Origin: an uncultured Nitrososphaerota archaeon
Lineage (GTDB): Archaea; Asgardarchaeota; Njordarchaeia; Njordarchaeales; Panguiarchaeaceae
Direction: 5' to 3'
Assembly: GCA_964628995.1 (NCBI GenBank)
Contig: CAZVPA010000103.1
Coordinates: forward strand, 1-8,860
Length of the DNA stretch: 8,860 nucleotides
The notes below the pieces were generated by a model. The model saw only the letters and a list, made by a program, of their open reading frames with translations, ran no database searches and had not been told where the DNA came from. Every line of letters starts with the position of its first letter. Position 1 is the first letter of the stretch. Below, piece by piece: positions 45 through 7,281 of the stretch. A program made the translations under genes and the position numbers.

Positions 45-614
45 CTACTCCACAATCTCTCTGAATGCCCTAGCCATTCTATATTCTTCAACTTTCTTCA
101 GGACACGACCATGTTTACTTCCTCTACAGATCGCCACCACAGCTTCCTTAGCGGCAAGCACATCCCAATATTTCCCAATTATTGCCACTTTCTTACCGCT
201 TATCGCTATTTTGACCCCCAACTCGTCCTCTATCTTAGATTTTATTTTTCCTCCTTTTCCAATCAATCTTGCTCTTATTCTGCTTAGGTCTCTTCCGCTT
301 TTGGCATATTCCTCAATATTTATTACCTCCAAGGTGTAGTCTGATTTTTCCGCCAAAATTAGGGCATCTTGAGGCGAAAAACCATGTGCTATTGCCTCAA
401 CCACCATCTTGGCCTTTAGGGCATTTTCGATATTGTCTCTGGGTGCCACTATTAATATCTCCTCCCTGCCTGGTCGTACTTTTATTTTCACTCCGAGAAG
501 TCTCTCTATTTTTTTCTCTACTGATCTCCTCGTTCCGATGACCACGCCAATACGCTCCTCACTTACCGACACAACCATGGCTATTTTTCCTTCATTATCC
601 GATGTTGTTTCCAT
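45..614 (-). CDS. KH-domain RNA-binding protein, archaeal Dim2/Pno1-like (two KH modules)
   Basis: 189-aa ORF. The C-terminal KH module has a canonical GXXG loop (LIGKGGKIKSKIEDELGVKI). The N-terminal KH-like module has a degenerate loop (VIGTRRSVEKKIERLLGVKIKV), as is typical of Dim2/Pno1. A GGTG Shine-Dalgarno-like motif lies about 6 nt upstream of the ATG at 614. Only 22 nt separate it from the stop of the upstream gene, with no TATA-like element, so co-transcription is likely. Confidence 0.8.
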   Translation of the reverse strand: METTSDNEGKIAMVVSVSEERIGVVIGTRRSVEKKIERLLGVKIKVRPGREEILIVAPRDNIENALKAKMVVEAIAHGFSPQDALILAEKSDYTLEVINIEEYAKSGRDLSRIRARLIGKGGKIKSKIEDELGVKIAISGKKVAIIGKYWDVLAAKEAVVAICRGSKHGRVLKKVEEYRMARAFREIVE

Positions 615-636
615 AATGACACCAGCAACATACCAC

Positions 637-1317
637 CTAATATTCCTGATCGAGAATCCTTATGACATTTCTAAAAATTATTAGAAGTCCCCGCTTAGCT
701 TTTTTCTCTATATCTCTAGACATTTCTGCTTCCCTGATGATATTTATCAGCTTACTGATATACTCTGAGTATCGCCTCAGATGTGGATTTTGAAGATTAT
801 CAATACATATTTTTATCATGGATAGGTTTTCTAGTAATGCTTTTTTATCTCCAACGCTCATACTTTTCCTCGCGCTGAGAATGTGTTGCCTCAGAGATTC
901 TATGGTATCCTCCTTTTTATATCGACTTTTAATAATCCGAATAACGTTTCTCAGCACATCAATTAAATCAAAGGATGTAATATCAGCATCGGATGGGTGA
1001 ACGCATCCAATGGATAAACCATGATAACTCACAAATATACATTCGGAACCATCAACGTTCATGTTTAGCTGGAAGACAGGTATGTCTCTACATGACACAC
1101 TTATGCTACTCCTCACTCTCAAATCCATCATATATTTCATATCAACCTGATAGAGGACCCATGAACGCACTGAGGGCAATACTTGGAGAATTCTTTTGTA
1201 TTTTTCGTCACCCATGAACAGTAACTCTAAACCATTATCATCGGATAAATAAACAGCCCTTGCCCCAGCATCGATAAGTTTTCCAACGAGTTTTCTTAAT
1301 TCTTCAACTCCAGACAT
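637..1317 (-). CDS. Roadblock/LC7 (MglB-like) domain protein with about 110-aa helical C-terminal extension
   Basis: The track ORF runs to 1374. I prefer the internal ATG at 1317 (MSGVEELRKLVGKLIDAGARAVYLSDDNGLELLFMG...). The 19 upstream codons (MFCFSFCAFVFKDNTDGQL) lie in a T-rich intergenic-looking stretch, and a TATA-like TTTTTAAAG sits about 26 nt upstream of 1317. The N-terminal pattern (helix, then ARAVYLSDDNGLELL strand pair, then helix and strands) resembles Roadblock/LC7. The functional call is by eye only. Confidence 0.55.
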   Translation of the reverse strand: MSGVEELRKLVGKLIDAGARAVYLSDDNGLELLFMGDEKYKRILQVLPSVRSWVLYQVDMKYMMDLRVRSSISVSCRDIPVFQLNMNVDGSECIFVSYHGLSIGCVHPSDADITSFDLIDVLRNVIRIIKSRYKKEDTIESLRQHILSARKSMSVGDKKALLENLSMIKICIDNLQNPHLRRYSEYISKLINIIREAEMSRDIEKKAKRGLLIIFRNVIRILDQEY

Positions 1318-1337
1318 TAGTTGACCATCGGTATTAT

Positions 1338-1347
1338 CTTTAAAAAC
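1338..1347 (-). promoter_or_regulatory. TATA-box-like element upstream of the Roadblock-like gene
   Basis: The minus strand reads GTTTTTAAAG, centred about 26 nt upstream of the ATG at 1317, which is the spacing expected for a leaderless or short-leader archaeal transcript. It is preceded (1350-1414) by several oligo-T runs on the minus strand that could terminate the GTPase transcript. Confidence 0.4.
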
Positions 1348-1414
1348 AAAAGCACAAAAGGAAAAACAAAACAAGTACTACTCAAATAGGAAAAACTATT
1401 AACAAATAAAATTC

Positions 1415-2296
1415 TTAAGGAAGCTCCTTTATCATTGACGCCAATATTTCTATGAACCTAGTTTTGGCATCAGGCCTTATTGCAACCATTGGGTATGAGG
1501 GAAAACCAGTAAGTTCTTCTATGGCTGACGCTGGAAGTCTATCTGGTAAATCTTGCTTATTAGCTATCAATACAAAACGCGAGTAGGGTGTTATCTTCAT
1601 TAAATATGGGAGTATTTCTTTCTGGAGTCTCTCAACATCATCTCTTGAGGAATCTGTCACCAGAACCACAAAGTCCGATCCCTCTGTTGTCACCATCCAT
1701 GTACGCCAGTATTCTGGCTGGCCAGCCACAGTAAATAGTGTTACCTTGAAGGGCTCTATACCTTCTATCTCAAGTTCTTCAACATCCGCCAGTATTGTTG
1801 GAATGTGCTTAGTTATGGAAATACCACGTGCTACAAGTTTTACTATTGTTGTTTTCCCGACACCACCATATCCAGTCAGTGTACACTTAACTGGTAATAG
1901 TTTTATTGCCTCCTCAACACACTCCCCAAACTTTATAGCCCCATCACTTTTTTCTTCGGCCTTCGATGTGTCTGAGAATATCTCAATAGCGTCCTCCATA
2001 AGTTTTCTTAGTACCTTCTCAAGTTCCTCAGCACCATTAACTCTATCCGCCAAAACCGATAACATAAAGTCTGATGTAATCATTATAGAGATTCTATACT
2101 GCCCCAGTTCTATTGAGTCCACCTCCTTGACGAAGTGTTCTCTCATGCCCAAAAGTATCCTATTTATCAGTGGGAAATTTGGTGTGAAATTGGCATAAGT
2201 ATCATAGAAAAGCTCATTACCGTAGGCGTCAAATAGTGCTACAGCACGAATCACCATATCATACACCCTATATACCATATATACTATAGACTTCAC
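1415..2296 (-). CDS. Small Ras-superfamily GTPase (MglA-like) with N-terminal longin/roadblock-like domain
   Basis: 293-aa ORF. G1 P-loop is GYGGVGKT (nt 1850-1873). A candidate switch I Thr is in HIPTILAD. G3 is TVAGQ (nt 1718-1732), with Thr in place of the usual Asp of DxxGQ, as in MglA TVPGQ. G4 is NKQD (nt 1550-1561). Residues about 14-107 (MVIRAVALFDAYGNELFYDTY...IELGQYRISIMITSDFMLSVLADR...EELEKVLRKLMEDAIEIF) show a strand-strand-helix-strand-strand-strand-helix pattern like longin or sigma-adaptin folds. The start is uncertain, with Met1 at 2296, Met7 or Met14 at 2257 all possible. Confidence 0.8.
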   Translation of the reverse strand: MKSIVYMVYRVYDMVIRAVALFDAYGNELFYDTYANFTPNFPLINRILLGMREHFVKEVDSIELGQYRISIMITSDFMLSVLADRVNGAEELEKVLRKLMEDAIEIFSDTSKAEEKSDGAIKFGECVEEAIKLLPVKCTLTGYGGVGKTTIVKLVARGISITKHIPTILADVEELEIEGIEPFKVTLFTVAGQPEYWRTWMVTTEGSDFVVLVTDSSRDDVERLQKEILPYLMKITPYSRFVLIANKQDLPDRLPASAIEELTGFPSYPMVAIRPDAKTRFIEILASMIKELP

Positions 2297-2355: not shown

Positions 2356-2664
2356 ATGTCGATGACATTCAATCAGTTAAAGCATAGGGTAATGGTAATC
2401 CTTGATGCTATTAGGAAAAAGCATCCATCTCAACACGCGCGAGATGAAACAACAATAAATAGGTTGGCAGGCATCGTAGATCATATGATAGAGGCAAATT
2501 TTAGTGAGGATAATATTGGGGAAATTCTCGATATGATAAAATCGATGAGTGTCACGCTATTTAACCAAGTACTTACAAAATCAAAATACTCAACAAAATG
2601 CCGACAGATTCACAGTAAGTACGTTTGGAGGCAAAAACTAAAAAAAGCAAGGGCTCAAAAATAA
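2356..2664 (+). CDS. Hypothetical small protein (102 aa, predicted helical, basic C-terminal tail)
   Basis: A 102-codon ORF is unlikely by chance in stop-rich AT-rich DNA. No competing ORF exists on the other strand. It is divergent from the GTPase gene across a 59-nt spacer containing TTATAG/TTTTATTTTAG TATA-like runs. I recognise no motif. Confidence 0.5.
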   Translation: MSMTFNQLKHRVMVILDAIRKKHPSQHARDETTINRLAGIVDHMIEANFSEDNIGEILDMIKSMSVTLFNQVLTKSKYSTKCRQIHSKYVWRQKLKKARAQK

Positions 2665-4149: not shown

Positions 4150-4470
4150 TCCAAAGACATCACCAATAGCATCCAGCCGAAAAACACTCCTTTTTTTCCT
4201 CTTTTAAATTTTTACTATTCAATGGGACTGTCCACCAAGATAAACTATCCTACTTTCAAGCTAGATTTCCTAACTAGGCTCCATGAAGCCCATATCATTA
4301 TCCGGTCAGTAGACGGTCTCTCATTCAACGGAATGATTACGAAGCCTTCACTTGATGTTACATCCCTATTGAAATGGATCGCAGGAAATAAAAACAACCA
4401 TTGAAAAATTTATTCTAGTAGGGAATATCGACGAAGGGTAATATTTTCTCAAAAGTAAGAGATTATTAGA

Positions 4471-4479
4471 GTGGCGCGG
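4471..4479. repeat. 9-nt direct repeat GTGGCGCGG, copy 1 (bounds permuted 5S unit)
   Basis: Identical to 4593-4601. The offset is exactly 122 nt, which equals 118 nt of 5S plus the 4-nt UUCG linker. Confidence 0.9.
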
Positions 4480-4592
4480 GGGTTTCCGAGTTCGAAATGG
4501 GTTCGGGCGTGGCCCGCGCCCTATGGCCGTCCGCCGAAGCGGACAGCACCGTCCTTTCGCCTGGGGTCTCCCACCAGACTACTCGGAGCGGC
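4471..4592 (-). rRNA. 5S rRNA, circularly permuted gene order (3' half - UUCG - 5' half), 122-nt minimal unit
   Basis: Minus strand 4534->4471 is the 5S 5' half, GCGGACGGCCAUAGGGCGCGGGCCACGCCCGAACCCAUUUCGAACUCGGAAACCCCCGCGCCAC. It carries the helix I 5' strand, loop A CAUAG, helix II, helix III CCGA/UCGG and the loop C box CCCAUUUCGAAC. Minus strand 4592->4539 is the 5S 3' half, GCCGCUCCGAGUAGUCUGGUGGGAGACCCCAGGCGAAAGGACGGUGCUGUCCGC. It carries helix V, loop E AGUA/GAA, helix IV and the helix I 3' strand. UUCG (4538->4535) links GUCCGC to GCGGAC. The two halves total 118 nt when placed in canonical order. Confidence 0.75.
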
Positions 4593-4601
4593 GTGGCGCG
4601 G
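4593..4601. repeat. 9-nt direct repeat GTGGCGCGG, copy 2
   Basis: Identical to 4471-4479. On the minus strand both copies read CCGCGCCAC, the helix II 3' strand. Confidence 0.9.
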
Positions 4602-4623
4602 CTTAGCCTTCGGCCCCCACACC
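4593..4623 (-). other. GC-rich 5' extension of the permuted 5S unit (degenerate partial 5S copy, leader arm of enclosing stem)
   Basis: The minus strand reads GGUGUGGGGGCCGAAGGCUAAGCCGCGCCAC. The segment GAAGGCUAAGCCGCGCCAC resembles the canonical archaeal loop B/helix II 3' strand (compare GGAAGUUAAGCCGCUCAC in Sulfolobus), and is closer to it than the copy at the 3' end of the unit (GGAAACCCCCGCGCCAC). Confidence 0.6.
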
Positions 4624-4869: not shown

Positions 4870-5673
4870 ATGATGGCTCAAGGGAGTATCGCCGATAAGA
4901 ATATGTGTAAGAGCGAAGAAATGGTAATTTATGAAAAATCACCACTTGTGCGTCTATGGACTCACAGGATTCGAAAATTCTTAATTAACCTAATTGACCA
5001 GCTCAGGATGGATGGGCTTATAGAATCAAACTTTGAAGTTGATCTAATTGATCTAGTGAAGTCTACTATTGCTTGTGTCTTAGATAATATTAATATTAAG
5101 AATAAGTTGCGGGTATATATATATGACATATCCATTGCGTGCTTTTGGCTTAAACTTCAGGAATGTGGTACGACTAAAATTTCCCCAATAAAACTTGTAA
5201 GTATGGCAAAAAAAATCCTTGGCAGGCGTGTAACTCACGGAAAAGTATTAAAAGTATTGGCATATATTAAAAAATATAGACATGGAAGAGGCTTGGATCC
5301 TATTGAAGATATAAAAAGGCATATATTCATCATACTGGATAACATGTTTAGGGACAAGGAGTTCATACAAACAAGATTCAATACAGATGATGTATACTCA
5401 ATGAATTTGATAGATCTCAAGCTAAATATTATTAAAAATGTAGGTAAATATCTATTGTTGATTCCACGTGAGAAAATTGTTGGAATACCTAGGAGAGTAT
5501 TTAGTGCAGTCTTTCTTTATGCTTTGTTGCGGTTGTTATCTGAGGAACATGGGGGTGTTCAGATATACTCGAGTGACATTGAAAGGTTCTCGGGGGTATC
5601 GCGATTCACGATATTAAGAAAGTATAAGACTATAAAAAAGTACCTACATGGTAATCGTGTATATGTACAGTAA
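4870..5673 (+). CDS. TFB/TFIIB-like protein: two cyclin-fold repeats, no N-terminal Zn-ribbon or B-reader
   Basis: 267-aa ORF. The C-terminal segment GIPRRVFSAVFLYALLRLLSEEHGGVQIYSSDIERFSGVSRFTILRKYKTIKKYL matches by eye the second TFB cyclin repeat (GKSPxxLxAAALYIAxxLxGExRTQxEVAxVxxVTEVTVRNRYKEL). The first repeat candidate is YDISIACFWLKLQECGTTKISPIKLVSMAKKILGRRVTHGKVLKVLAYIKKY. There is no CxxC pair anywhere. TATA-like TTATATAT/TATAAAA lies 30-50 nt upstream. Confidence 0.6.
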   Translation: MMAQGSIADKNMCKSEEMVIYEKSPLVRLWTHRIRKFLINLIDQLRMDGLIESNFEVDLIDLVKSTIACVLDNINIKNKLRVYIYDISIACFWLKLQECGTTKISPIKLVSMAKKILGRRVTHGKVLKVLAYIKKYRHGRGLDPIEDIKRHIFIILDNMFRDKEFIQTRFNTDDVYSMNLIDLKLNIIKNVGKYLLLIPREKIVGIPRRVFSAVFLYALLRLLSEEHGGVQIYSSDIERFSGVSRFTILRKYKTIKKYLHGNRVYVQ

Positions 5674-5742
5674 GCTTCTAATATTCATGTAGCGATTCTC
5701 TTTATCCTATCGCACTCCAGATGGAACAATCGGTGGTTATAG

Positions 5743-7281
5743 TTGGAGTTGATATACCACAATAGGGTAGCGAGATATATTGTTTCGGAGGGTATGTATA
5801 GATTTGAACTCAAGGAGACATTCAAAAACACAGCAAACATACTTTTTCCTCTTTTTCTAAAGTTTTTTGATAATCAACCCATAAGTACTCTAATCAACTT
5901 TGATGTACTAGAATCAGAGTTTATGAAGTATGTAAAGAGAGAGAGGGTAGTATATAGATATCTAAAAAAATTTCTAGATGGATATAACCACGATAACATG
6001 AAAGATATGGTGATTTTTCTTGTTTTCAAAATGTTTGATATCGAAGTTTTGTTTCCAATAATAGCTGATGTATTGGTTAATGAACTATTTGTAGATGGAC
6101 ATGGAAGAAGAATCTATATAGACCACGCGTTACTCGGAAGGCGAGATACTGAAATATTGTTGAATTCCAGACAGATCAGCAATTTATTATTATTTATAAA
6201 AGTCTATGGAGACACTCTAATAGCGGGGATCAATCCATCGGCTAAAATAGACCTACGTTTTCATAATCAAAGATTGCGAATCAGTGTTGATTCGGATCGG
6301 AGGGGCAGAGTATCAATAGCTATAAGGAAACTCTCTAGTATTCCTCCATTCTTCTCTCTTATACGTGATGTAAACAACAGGAAGATCTTATCATTGATAG
6401 CCACGCTCATGGTATTCCGTCCAAATATTGTAATATTCGGAGAAACTGGTGCGGGTAAGACAACACTAGCTGGTATACTATTGAGTATTCTTCCAGACTC
6501 TTGGAGGATAATAACCATAGAAGATGTACTAGAAATACCAGATAAACTAATTGAAAACAAAAGAATTGTTAGGATTCTTGTCCCAACTTTCGAGACACGA
6601 TTGGTAGCTCCTTTAAGCCGGAATAAATTCATGGTGTTGAAGGAGACGGAGATAATAAAACTATTACATAGATCTCCAGATTTCTGCTTTATCAGCGAGA
6701 TACAGGATGCCTCTGATACGAGAGCGATCTTTCATGCATTTGCTGCTGGAATAAGGGGAATAGCTACCACGCATGCGCGGGATATCTATGGGTTACTAAA
6801 CAGATGGATGGGAATATATAATATCCCTTCCGAATGGGTCCACCTAATAGATATTCTAATTTTTATGGTAAGAGAGCTACATGGAGGGGGGATACGCAGA
6901 AGTATAGGATCTGTATATATCCCAATAAATGCATCATCGGGAAGCGCATTGGTCAGGGATGATTTATTTTTAACATACACAATCAAAAACCGCAGGATAG
7001 AGTTCATTAATATTCCATTAAGTAATGCTTTCTCTCTAGAGTATATCAAGAAAATACTAAGCGTATTTTTTCTAAAGCGATTAAACAGGCCATGTAACAG
7101 AAAAATAGGTACTCTTGTAGAATTATTTAATAATATCTATAATGCTCTTGGAAAGATGCTAAAACTTATAGGTGGCCAAGGGTTCTCTATTGATGATTCA
7201 CTTCAGGAAAGAGCGTTTACAATTTTTAGAGATATAGCAAAAAAAATCGAGAAAACAATCAATGAGACCCTAATGTGCTAG
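5743..7281 (+). CDS. Secretion-superfamily ATPase (FlaI/VirB11/GspE/TadA family), divergent
   Basis: 512 aa. N-domain signatures are VNELFVDG, RLRISV and IAIRKL. Walker A is GETGAGKTT (nt 6439-6465), the Asp box is RIITIEDVLEI, the Walker B region is DFCFISEIQD (family consensus GE(I/V)RD) and the His box is GIATTHA. The start is either TTG at 5743, preceded by GGTGG with a 6-nt spacer, or ATG at 5794, preceded by GGAGGG at very short spacing. A 69-nt gap from the TFB-like gene has no clear TATA, so co-transcription is possible. Confidence 0.85.
   Translation: MELIYHNRVARYIVSEGMYRFELKETFKNTANILFPLFLKFFDNQPISTLINFDVLESEFMKYVKRERVVYRYLKKFLDGYNHDNMKDMVIFLVFKMFDIEVLFPIIADVLVNELFVDGHGRRIYIDHALLGRRDTEILLNSRQISNLLLFIKVYGDTLIAGINPSAKIDLRFHNQRLRISVDSDRRGRVSIAIRKLSSIPPFFSLIRDVNNRKILSLIATLMVFRPNIVIFGETGAGKTTLAGILLSILPDSWRIITIEDVLEIPDKLIENKRIVRILVPTFETRLVAPLSRNKFMVLKETEIIKLLHRSPDFCFISEIQDASDTRAIFHAFAAGIRGIATTHARDIYGLLNRWMGIYNIPSEWVHLIDILIFMVRELHGGGIRRSIGSVYIPINASSGSALVRDDLFLTYTIKNRRIEFINIPLSNAFSLEYIKKILSVFFLKRLNRPCNRKIGTLVELFNNIYNALGKMLKLIGGQGFSIDDSLQERAFTIFRDIAKKIEKTINETLMC

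Follow-up and report, generated by a model that had tools for sequence, protein, structure and literature searches.

A longin-ArfL GTPase with a G3 threonine and a Dim2-linked Roadblock protein encoded side by side in a Njordarchaeales archaeon

The stretch of DNA analysed here, called the window, is an entire contig of 8.9 kb from a 2.7-Mb, 82% complete genome (G000 in our genome labels) of the Njordarchaeales, a group of Asgard archaea. Three open reading frames, all on the minus strand, encode a small GTPase, a 226-aa Roadblock protein and a KH protein, as described in the initial annotation, and the GTPase motifs that it quoted are all found: G1 GYGGVGKT, G3 TVAGQ and G4 NKQD in a compact domain of about 160 aa. 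Among named sequences, the nearest homologs of the GTPase belong to Njordarchaeota/Njordarchaeales, Asgard archaea. Relatives keep all three genes, so that their observation is not a matter of chance. The features are listed below in the order of transcription.

1415-2257, minus strand: longin-ArfL small GTPase gene, 280 aa (homolog starts, tree)
1898-2257, minus strand: longin domain, residues 1-120 (AF2 model, family profile, Pfam in homologs)
1418-1897, minus strand: ArfL G domain, residues 121-280 (Pfam, fold, tree, profile scores)
1847-1873, minus strand: G1 P-loop GYGGVGKTT, of ArfL type (motif)
1796-1801, minus strand: Pro153-Thr154, the G2 site, with Thr154 at 1796-1798 (motif)
1718-1732, minus strand: G3 TVAGQ, in which Thr176 replaces Asp and Gln180 is retained (motif)
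1550-1561, minus strand: G4 NKQD (motif)
1318-1414, minus strand: 97-nt T-rich spacer from the GTPase gene to the Roadblock gene (sequence)
637-1317, minus strand: Roadblock and helical-bundle gene, 226 aa (fold, homologs; Njordarchaeales only)
919-1317, minus strand: Roadblock/LC7-fold domain, residues 1-133 (structure match to MglB)
640-918, minus strand: basic four-helix bundle tail, residues 134-226, pI 9.7 (model)
615-636, minus strand: 22-nt spacer with an SD-like GGTG motif ahead of the Dim2 start (sequence)
45-614, minus strand: Dim2/Pno1 (arCOG04150), double-KH ribosome-maturation protein, 189 aa (family HMM)

The GTPase frame had been read as 293 aa from a GTG at 2296. This is over-extended: nearly all the close homologs begin with MVIRA or MIRA, that is at the second start, ATG 2257, and the protein is therefore taken as 280 aa long. 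The start of the 226-aa gene, ATG 1317, agrees with those of its homologs. The 97-nt spacer between the two genes contains several T-tracts and a TTTAAA box that ends 21 nt before ATG 1317; it is possible that they represent a putative oligo-T terminator of the GTPase gene and a TATA-like box of the Roadblock gene, and the T-rich composition fits termination after the GTPase gene. The 22-nt gap and the SD-like motif noticed ahead of the KH gene are present, and the family HMM confirms this gene as arCOG04150/Dim2-Pno1, with two KH domains and a match to TIGR03665 above the cut-off (E 2e-44). Elsewhere in the window, a 102-aa basic helical ORF (2356-2664, plus strand) is divergent from the GTPase gene and occupies this position in 4 loci of the genus; counted from the corrected GTPase start, the spacer between the two is 98 nt and not 59. 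A dispersed repeat of about 100 bp (4220-4320) shares 75-84% identity with stretches on 8 other contigs. Positions 4870-7281 (plus strand) hold a 267-aa ORF with no family match and a divergent FlaI/VirB11-type ATPase, a pair that stays together in 5 loci of the genus and mostly precedes EF-1alpha.

The AlphaFold (AF2) model of the GTPase (pLDDT 86.6) gives residues 1-120 the topology beta-beta-alpha-beta-beta-beta-alpha-alpha, which is that of a longin and not of a Roadblock domain. The longin reading first proposed for the N-terminus is right, and the resemblance to sigma-adaptin and longin N-termini is borne out by the search of solved structures with a profile of the longin-domain family. 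One row of this profile held G-domain sequence, and the sigma matches of the profile (AP-2 sigma, E 7.6e-5; AP-3 sigma, E 0.002; AP-4 sigma) span positions 1-103; they recur, weaker, with a clean second alignment of the domain. The weaker matches of the profile are VAMP7, Bet5 and delta-COP, all longins. The Pfam models Longin, Fuz_longin_1 and Clat_adaptor_s match homologs of the GTPase, and the window protein taken alone is below detection. In fold searches with the full model the match list is filled by the G domain, and the ESM Atlas feature searches gave sub-threshold leads only. Lokiarchaeal and Thorarchaeal clusters share the fold of both domains over the whole chain (TM 0.89-0.90), and the architecture is not new, longin-ArfL fusions having been in print since 2016 (PMC4917890, PMC10933270). 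Five Loki longins are fused to Arf-like GTPases (PMC4917890), which also cites Klinger et al. 2016 for Asgard ArfL with an N-terminal longin, and longin-GTPase architectures occur in strain MK-D1 (PMC10933270).

The G domain, about 160 aa long, matches the Pfam Arf model (E 3e-13), and its best matches among solved structures are Arl2 and Arf1. The Arf-like G domain is shared with Asgard ArfR and with eukaryotic Arf and SRbeta, and among the eukaryotic longin partners SRalpha and AP sigma/mu, the window longin is most like AP sigma. Unlike ArfR and Arf, the window GTPase has its longin fused in cis and carries no Arf-type N-terminal amphipathic helix; it also has no C-terminal cysteine. In the AF2 model the protein ends with the G domain, with no C-terminal Roadblock domain as in Rag/Gtr.

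The family was assigned with a tree of 91 G domains, whose reference groups were labelled by motif against a published table and include four ArfR-like rows. The window GTPase lies within a Njordarchaeales clade (100/100) whose sisters mostly retain the G3 Asp (99/94). Clade and sisters together nest in the ArfL clade (100/99) with P0058 (NVM02068), to which Vargova et al. (10.1101/2024.02.28.582541) give the label ArfL in their Table S3. In this 91-row tree the window GTPase is separate from the four ArfR-like rows and outside MglA2-5, whose G3 is of the xTPG type and which form a clade of their own (100/93). A constrained clade of the GTPase with MglA1, represented by 7 Asgard sequences only, with Rag and bacterial MglA1 left out, is rejected (p-AU 0.025). 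Scored with family profiles, the window GTPase reaches 140 bits for distant ArfL of the Asp type, 72 for MglA2-5 and 40 for MglA1, and it carries the ArfL signature: VTDS after beta4, ANKQDL and xAI at G5. The initial annotation, which called the GTPase MglA-type, had named membership of another family, with TxxGQ arising convergently, as an outcome that would overturn it, and this is what the tree gives. The 280-aa protein is, on sequence comparison, the Njordarchaeales ortholog of the Asgard longin-ArfL GTPases, and its G3 Thr is convergent. It has the domain order, the fold, the G1/G2/G4/G5 signatures and the place in the tree of that family (PMC4917890; 10.1101/2024.02.28.582541; PMC10933270), from which it differs by the G3 Thr (Thr or Ser for Asp in the clade), by Phe for Trp before G3, and by the detachment of its gene from the usual winged-helix neighbour.

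The first reading, in which the GTPase would be a true MglA that acquired a longin and is paired with its cognate MglB, draws on TVAGQ, a G3 sequence that recurs unchanged in some MglA1 proteins of Asgard archaea. The MglA/MglB systems of Myxococcus and Thermus (PMC3199381, PMC3000849) and Asgard MglA1 also resemble the window in the catalytic Gln and in the adjoining Roadblock gene. The tree, the AU test, the profile scores and the G1 and G2 signatures nevertheless make this reading scarcely credible: the P-loop is GYGGVGKTT and not the GPSLGGKTT of MglA1, the longin is fused, the RTxFFD switch I is missing, and the Roadblock adjacency is not conserved. In MglA the intrinsic arginine finger, Arg53, is absolutely conserved (PMC3199381). 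Its place, directly before the G2 Thr, is occupied by Pro153 in the window GTPase, and the context is Pro-Thr in 13/13 clade members and Arg-Thr in the MglA1 of the same genome. This separate, true MglA1, with a GPSL P-loop, an Arg-Thr switch I and TVPGQ, also speaks against the MglA reading; its gene was identified by motifs on the plus strand (C33:14718-15341 in G000; L229:3725-4345). An actin gene (Pfam Actin, E 2e-110) stands beside it in convergent orientation, and no Roadblock gene is its direct neighbour on C33. 

Normally a water molecule links the G3 Asp to Mg2+, and both Thr and Ser are found at its site within the Njordarchaeales clade. These points would suit a GTPase in which Mg2+ coordination is weak and which, being essentially always GTP-bound or poor at hydrolysis, serves as a scaffold. 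We regard this as improbable: the close homologs show little or no variation in G1, the G2 Thr, Gln180 and G4, and MglA hydrolyses GTP despite a Thr at the same site (PMC3199381, PMC3000849). Arg72 is conserved in the 22 closest rows of the homolog alignment. The change at G3 has probably occurred twice within ArfL, since another ArfL with a G3 Thr, found in genome G020 (TVGGQ; L046:7476-8306), branches among the Asp-type sisters.

The neighbour of the GTPase was correctly recognised as a platform protein. The model of the 226-aa protein (pLDDT 87.5) contains a Roadblock domain in residues 1-133, with the order alpha-beta-beta-alpha-beta-beta-beta-alpha that matches MglB and LAMTOR. The best structure match is MglB (6hjm_A, Z 13.1, rmsd 2.8, 118 aligned residues), and the Foldseek top 50 are all or nearly all Roadblock proteins (MglB, LAMTOR, Asgard). 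The helical tail that had been pointed out is real and is modelled as a basic four-helix bundle; it matches generic bundles only (FAT, vinculin tail, designed proteins), and we therefore give it no family. The fold and topology of residues 1-133 are those of the Roadblock/LC7 proteins (MglB, LAMTOR2/3, Asgard 7f8m, 7yh1 and 9jue), from which the 226-aa protein is set apart by a longer central helix, the added bundle, a sequence below Pfam detection, its restriction to Njordarchaeales and its tie to Dim2. Pfam and NCBIfam give no match for it; PF03259 (Roadblock/LC7) reaches E 0.03, below the cut-off, in an ortholog and does not match the window protein. The sequence search of solved structures returns no significant match, and no RNA-binding fold is recognised. 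This Roadblock-bundle family is found only in Njordarchaeales by sequence: it occurs in 13/14 Njordarchaeales genomes, no full-length homolog appears in the 27 other Asgard genomes searched, and 1.8 billion representatives yield six full-length matches.

Of the two gene links proposed at the locus, the one between the Roadblock and the KH gene is conserved. The Roadblock gene adjoins Dim2 in 12/13 genomes, directly upstream in 11 and tail to tail in one, and lies beside it on one further metagenome contig. Outside Njordarchaeales, in the other Asgards, the position directly before Dim2 is held by RIO1 in 14/17 loci. Compared with the archaeal aIF1A-RIO1-Dim2 cluster, the window has the same Dim2 ortholog and the same closely coupled upstream position, with the Roadblock-bundle gene in the place of RIO1, which has moved or is not found. 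Indeed, RIO1 is present elsewhere in the genome in 8 genomes of two other Njordarchaeales genera that carry the Roadblock-bundle, and a search with one query finds it in 0/5 genomes of the genus of the window (75-83% complete) and not in genome G007 either; in both cases RIO2 alone scores. A candidate reading of the 226-aa protein as a decayed RIO1 was dropped, its fold being Roadblock.

The same synteny is the ground for seeing in the Roadblock-bundle protein a lineage-specific factor of small-subunit maturation that works with Dim2, its basic tail resting on rRNA or on Dim2, and that perhaps covers for RIO1 in the genus of the window. The linkage to Dim2 (12 of 13 genomes plus the further contig), the RIO1 slot, the one-query failure to find RIO1 in that genus, the basic tail and the nearby 5S rRNA and tRNA genes all favour it, and it is compatible with the longin-ArfL part of the explanation that we prefer. 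We consider it unlikely: the 8 genomes with RIO1 elsewhere indicate that the replacement is not a simple one, genes often hitchhike on strong housekeeping operons, and no RNA-binding fold is recognised.

The surroundings of the Roadblock-Dim2 locus include 5S rRNA and tRNA genes. The 5S rRNA gene of the window (4473-4623, minus strand) is circularly permuted, with its 3' part first. Helix I is closed by a UUCG loop, and the new ends form a stem of 10-13 bp in which the sequence varies and the pairing is kept. The layout is shared by 12/12 Njordarchaeales genomes with a detected 5S gene and by 7 further Asgard genomes; our literature search found no paper on archaeal permuted 5S genes.

The second link, a GTPase/Roadblock pair as a conserved unit, is not supported. 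Both genes are present in 13 genomes, and they adjoin in only 3 of them. All three belong to the genus of the window, in which 3/5 genomes have the genes adjacent and co-oriented, and the other two have them 1.7 and about 4 kb apart, with genes between. In G009 the distance on one contig is 116 kb. In the other large Njordarchaeales genus, the GTPase gene directly follows, in 6/7 genomes, a HEAT-repeat gene of about 625 aa (loci L036 and L038-L042, by synteny). The genome of the window has a homolog of the HEAT-repeat gene at C198:182-2086, unlinked to the GTPase. In G007, the one remaining Njordarchaeales genome (L225:5195-7908), a winged-helix gene, an Asp-type longin-ArfL gene and a short Roadblock gene form one co-oriented run; the latter was considered as a member of the Roadblock-bundle family and rejected, no specific homology being found.

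Could the two proteins nonetheless be a convergent, MglA/MglB-like pair, in which the G3 Thr of ArfL and the Roadblock-bundle arose on one branch and the Roadblock dimer became a dedicated GAP or GEF? The Thr-type GTPase and the Roadblock-bundle family occupy the same 13 genomes (13/13), and this shared distribution keeps a functional link in play. Adjacency and co-orientation in 3/5 genomes of the genus, the closeness of the 226-aa fold to MglB, the known use of Roadblock dimers as GTPase platforms (PMC10933270) and the succession of ArfL and Roadblock genes in G007 point the same way. Yet the 13 genomes form one clade and hence count as a single evolutionary event, the genes are separated in 10/13 genomes, and in G020 a G3 Thr occurs with no homolog of the Roadblock-bundle detected. 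The equivalent of Arg53 that an MglB-type mechanism calls for is missing, so that hydrolysis cannot be switched on in the manner of MglB, and the true MglA1 of the genome could be the client of the Roadblock protein. Such a pair seems to us quite unlikely. A still bolder combination, which we hold to be very improbable, would place on the Njordarchaeales stem both the gain of the G3 Thr by the longin-ArfL and the arrival of a new Roadblock-bundle regulator in the RIO1 slot, coupling the switch to small-subunit maturation in a genus in which RIO1 was not found with one query.

Longin platforms act as dimers, as in TRAPP, Mon1-Ccz1 and GATOR1. We infer on this ground that the likeliest candidate partner of the fused longin, ahead of the 226-aa Roadblock protein, is a protein of about 350 aa with tandem winged helices in its C-terminal part and an N-terminal domain whose alignment to the longin profile is weak (hhalign probability 2%, E 0.02). 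The family is present in 33/41 genomes. In 13 other Asgard genomes, which span 8 families and more than one class, its gene lies next to one for a longin-ArfL, and in 9 of these 13 it stands immediately upstream on the same strand, some of the ArfL genes being paralogs rather than the closest orthologs and related genomes not being independent. The genome of the window has two copies unlinked to the GTPase (C61:11133-12173 and C69:7242-8411; other loci of the family are L046, L047, L022 and L225). The large gene upstream of the C61 copy is only weakly similar to its counterparts in other Asgards, for which reason we claim no ancestral operon. A literature search found no known partner of any ArfL and no report on the biochemistry of any ArfL.

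The model that we favour, with a probability of about 0.7, combines these observations into two separate modules, the longin-ArfL GTPase on the one hand and the Roadblock-bundle/Dim2 pair on the other, which a recent local rearrangement would have joined in the window. The GTPase would be a soluble GDP/GTP switch, as its lack of an amphipathic helix and of a C-terminal cysteine suggests. The fused longin would pair with a second platform domain, most likely that of the winged-helix protein with its possibly longin-like N-terminus, to form a dimeric surface that regulates the G domain, by analogy with the longin and Roadblock dimers of TRAPP, Mon1-Ccz1 and Ragulator. The 226-aa protein would be a Njordarchaeales-specific scaffold, dimeric to judge from its fold. 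Its gene, probably transcribed together with Dim2, would have come to occupy the upstream position that belongs to RIO1 in other Asgards, and it would stand beside the GTPase gene as the outcome of a rearrangement that took place recently in this much-shuffled stretch of translation genes. The identical 13-genome distribution of the two families counts against their separateness, as does the Asp-type ArfL of G007 followed by a different Roadblock gene; the weak longin alignment and the unlinked position of the winged-helix gene in the 13 Thr-type genomes count against the winged-helix partner.

In conclusion, our analysis bears on the way in which Asgard GTPases are named. In PMC3000849 the TxxGQ motif is called unique to MglA; it arose independently within ArfL, probably twice, and by itself it misclassifies Asgard GTPases. 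ArfL has been reported from Asgard archaea only, and the bearing of these findings on eukaryotic origins is thus indirect. The recurring winged-helix neighbour offers a concrete candidate for a partner of ArfL. Could a Roadblock protein take part in the maturation of the ribosome? We found no description in the literature of a Roadblock-bundle family in the RIO1 slot, and its presence there makes such a role testable.
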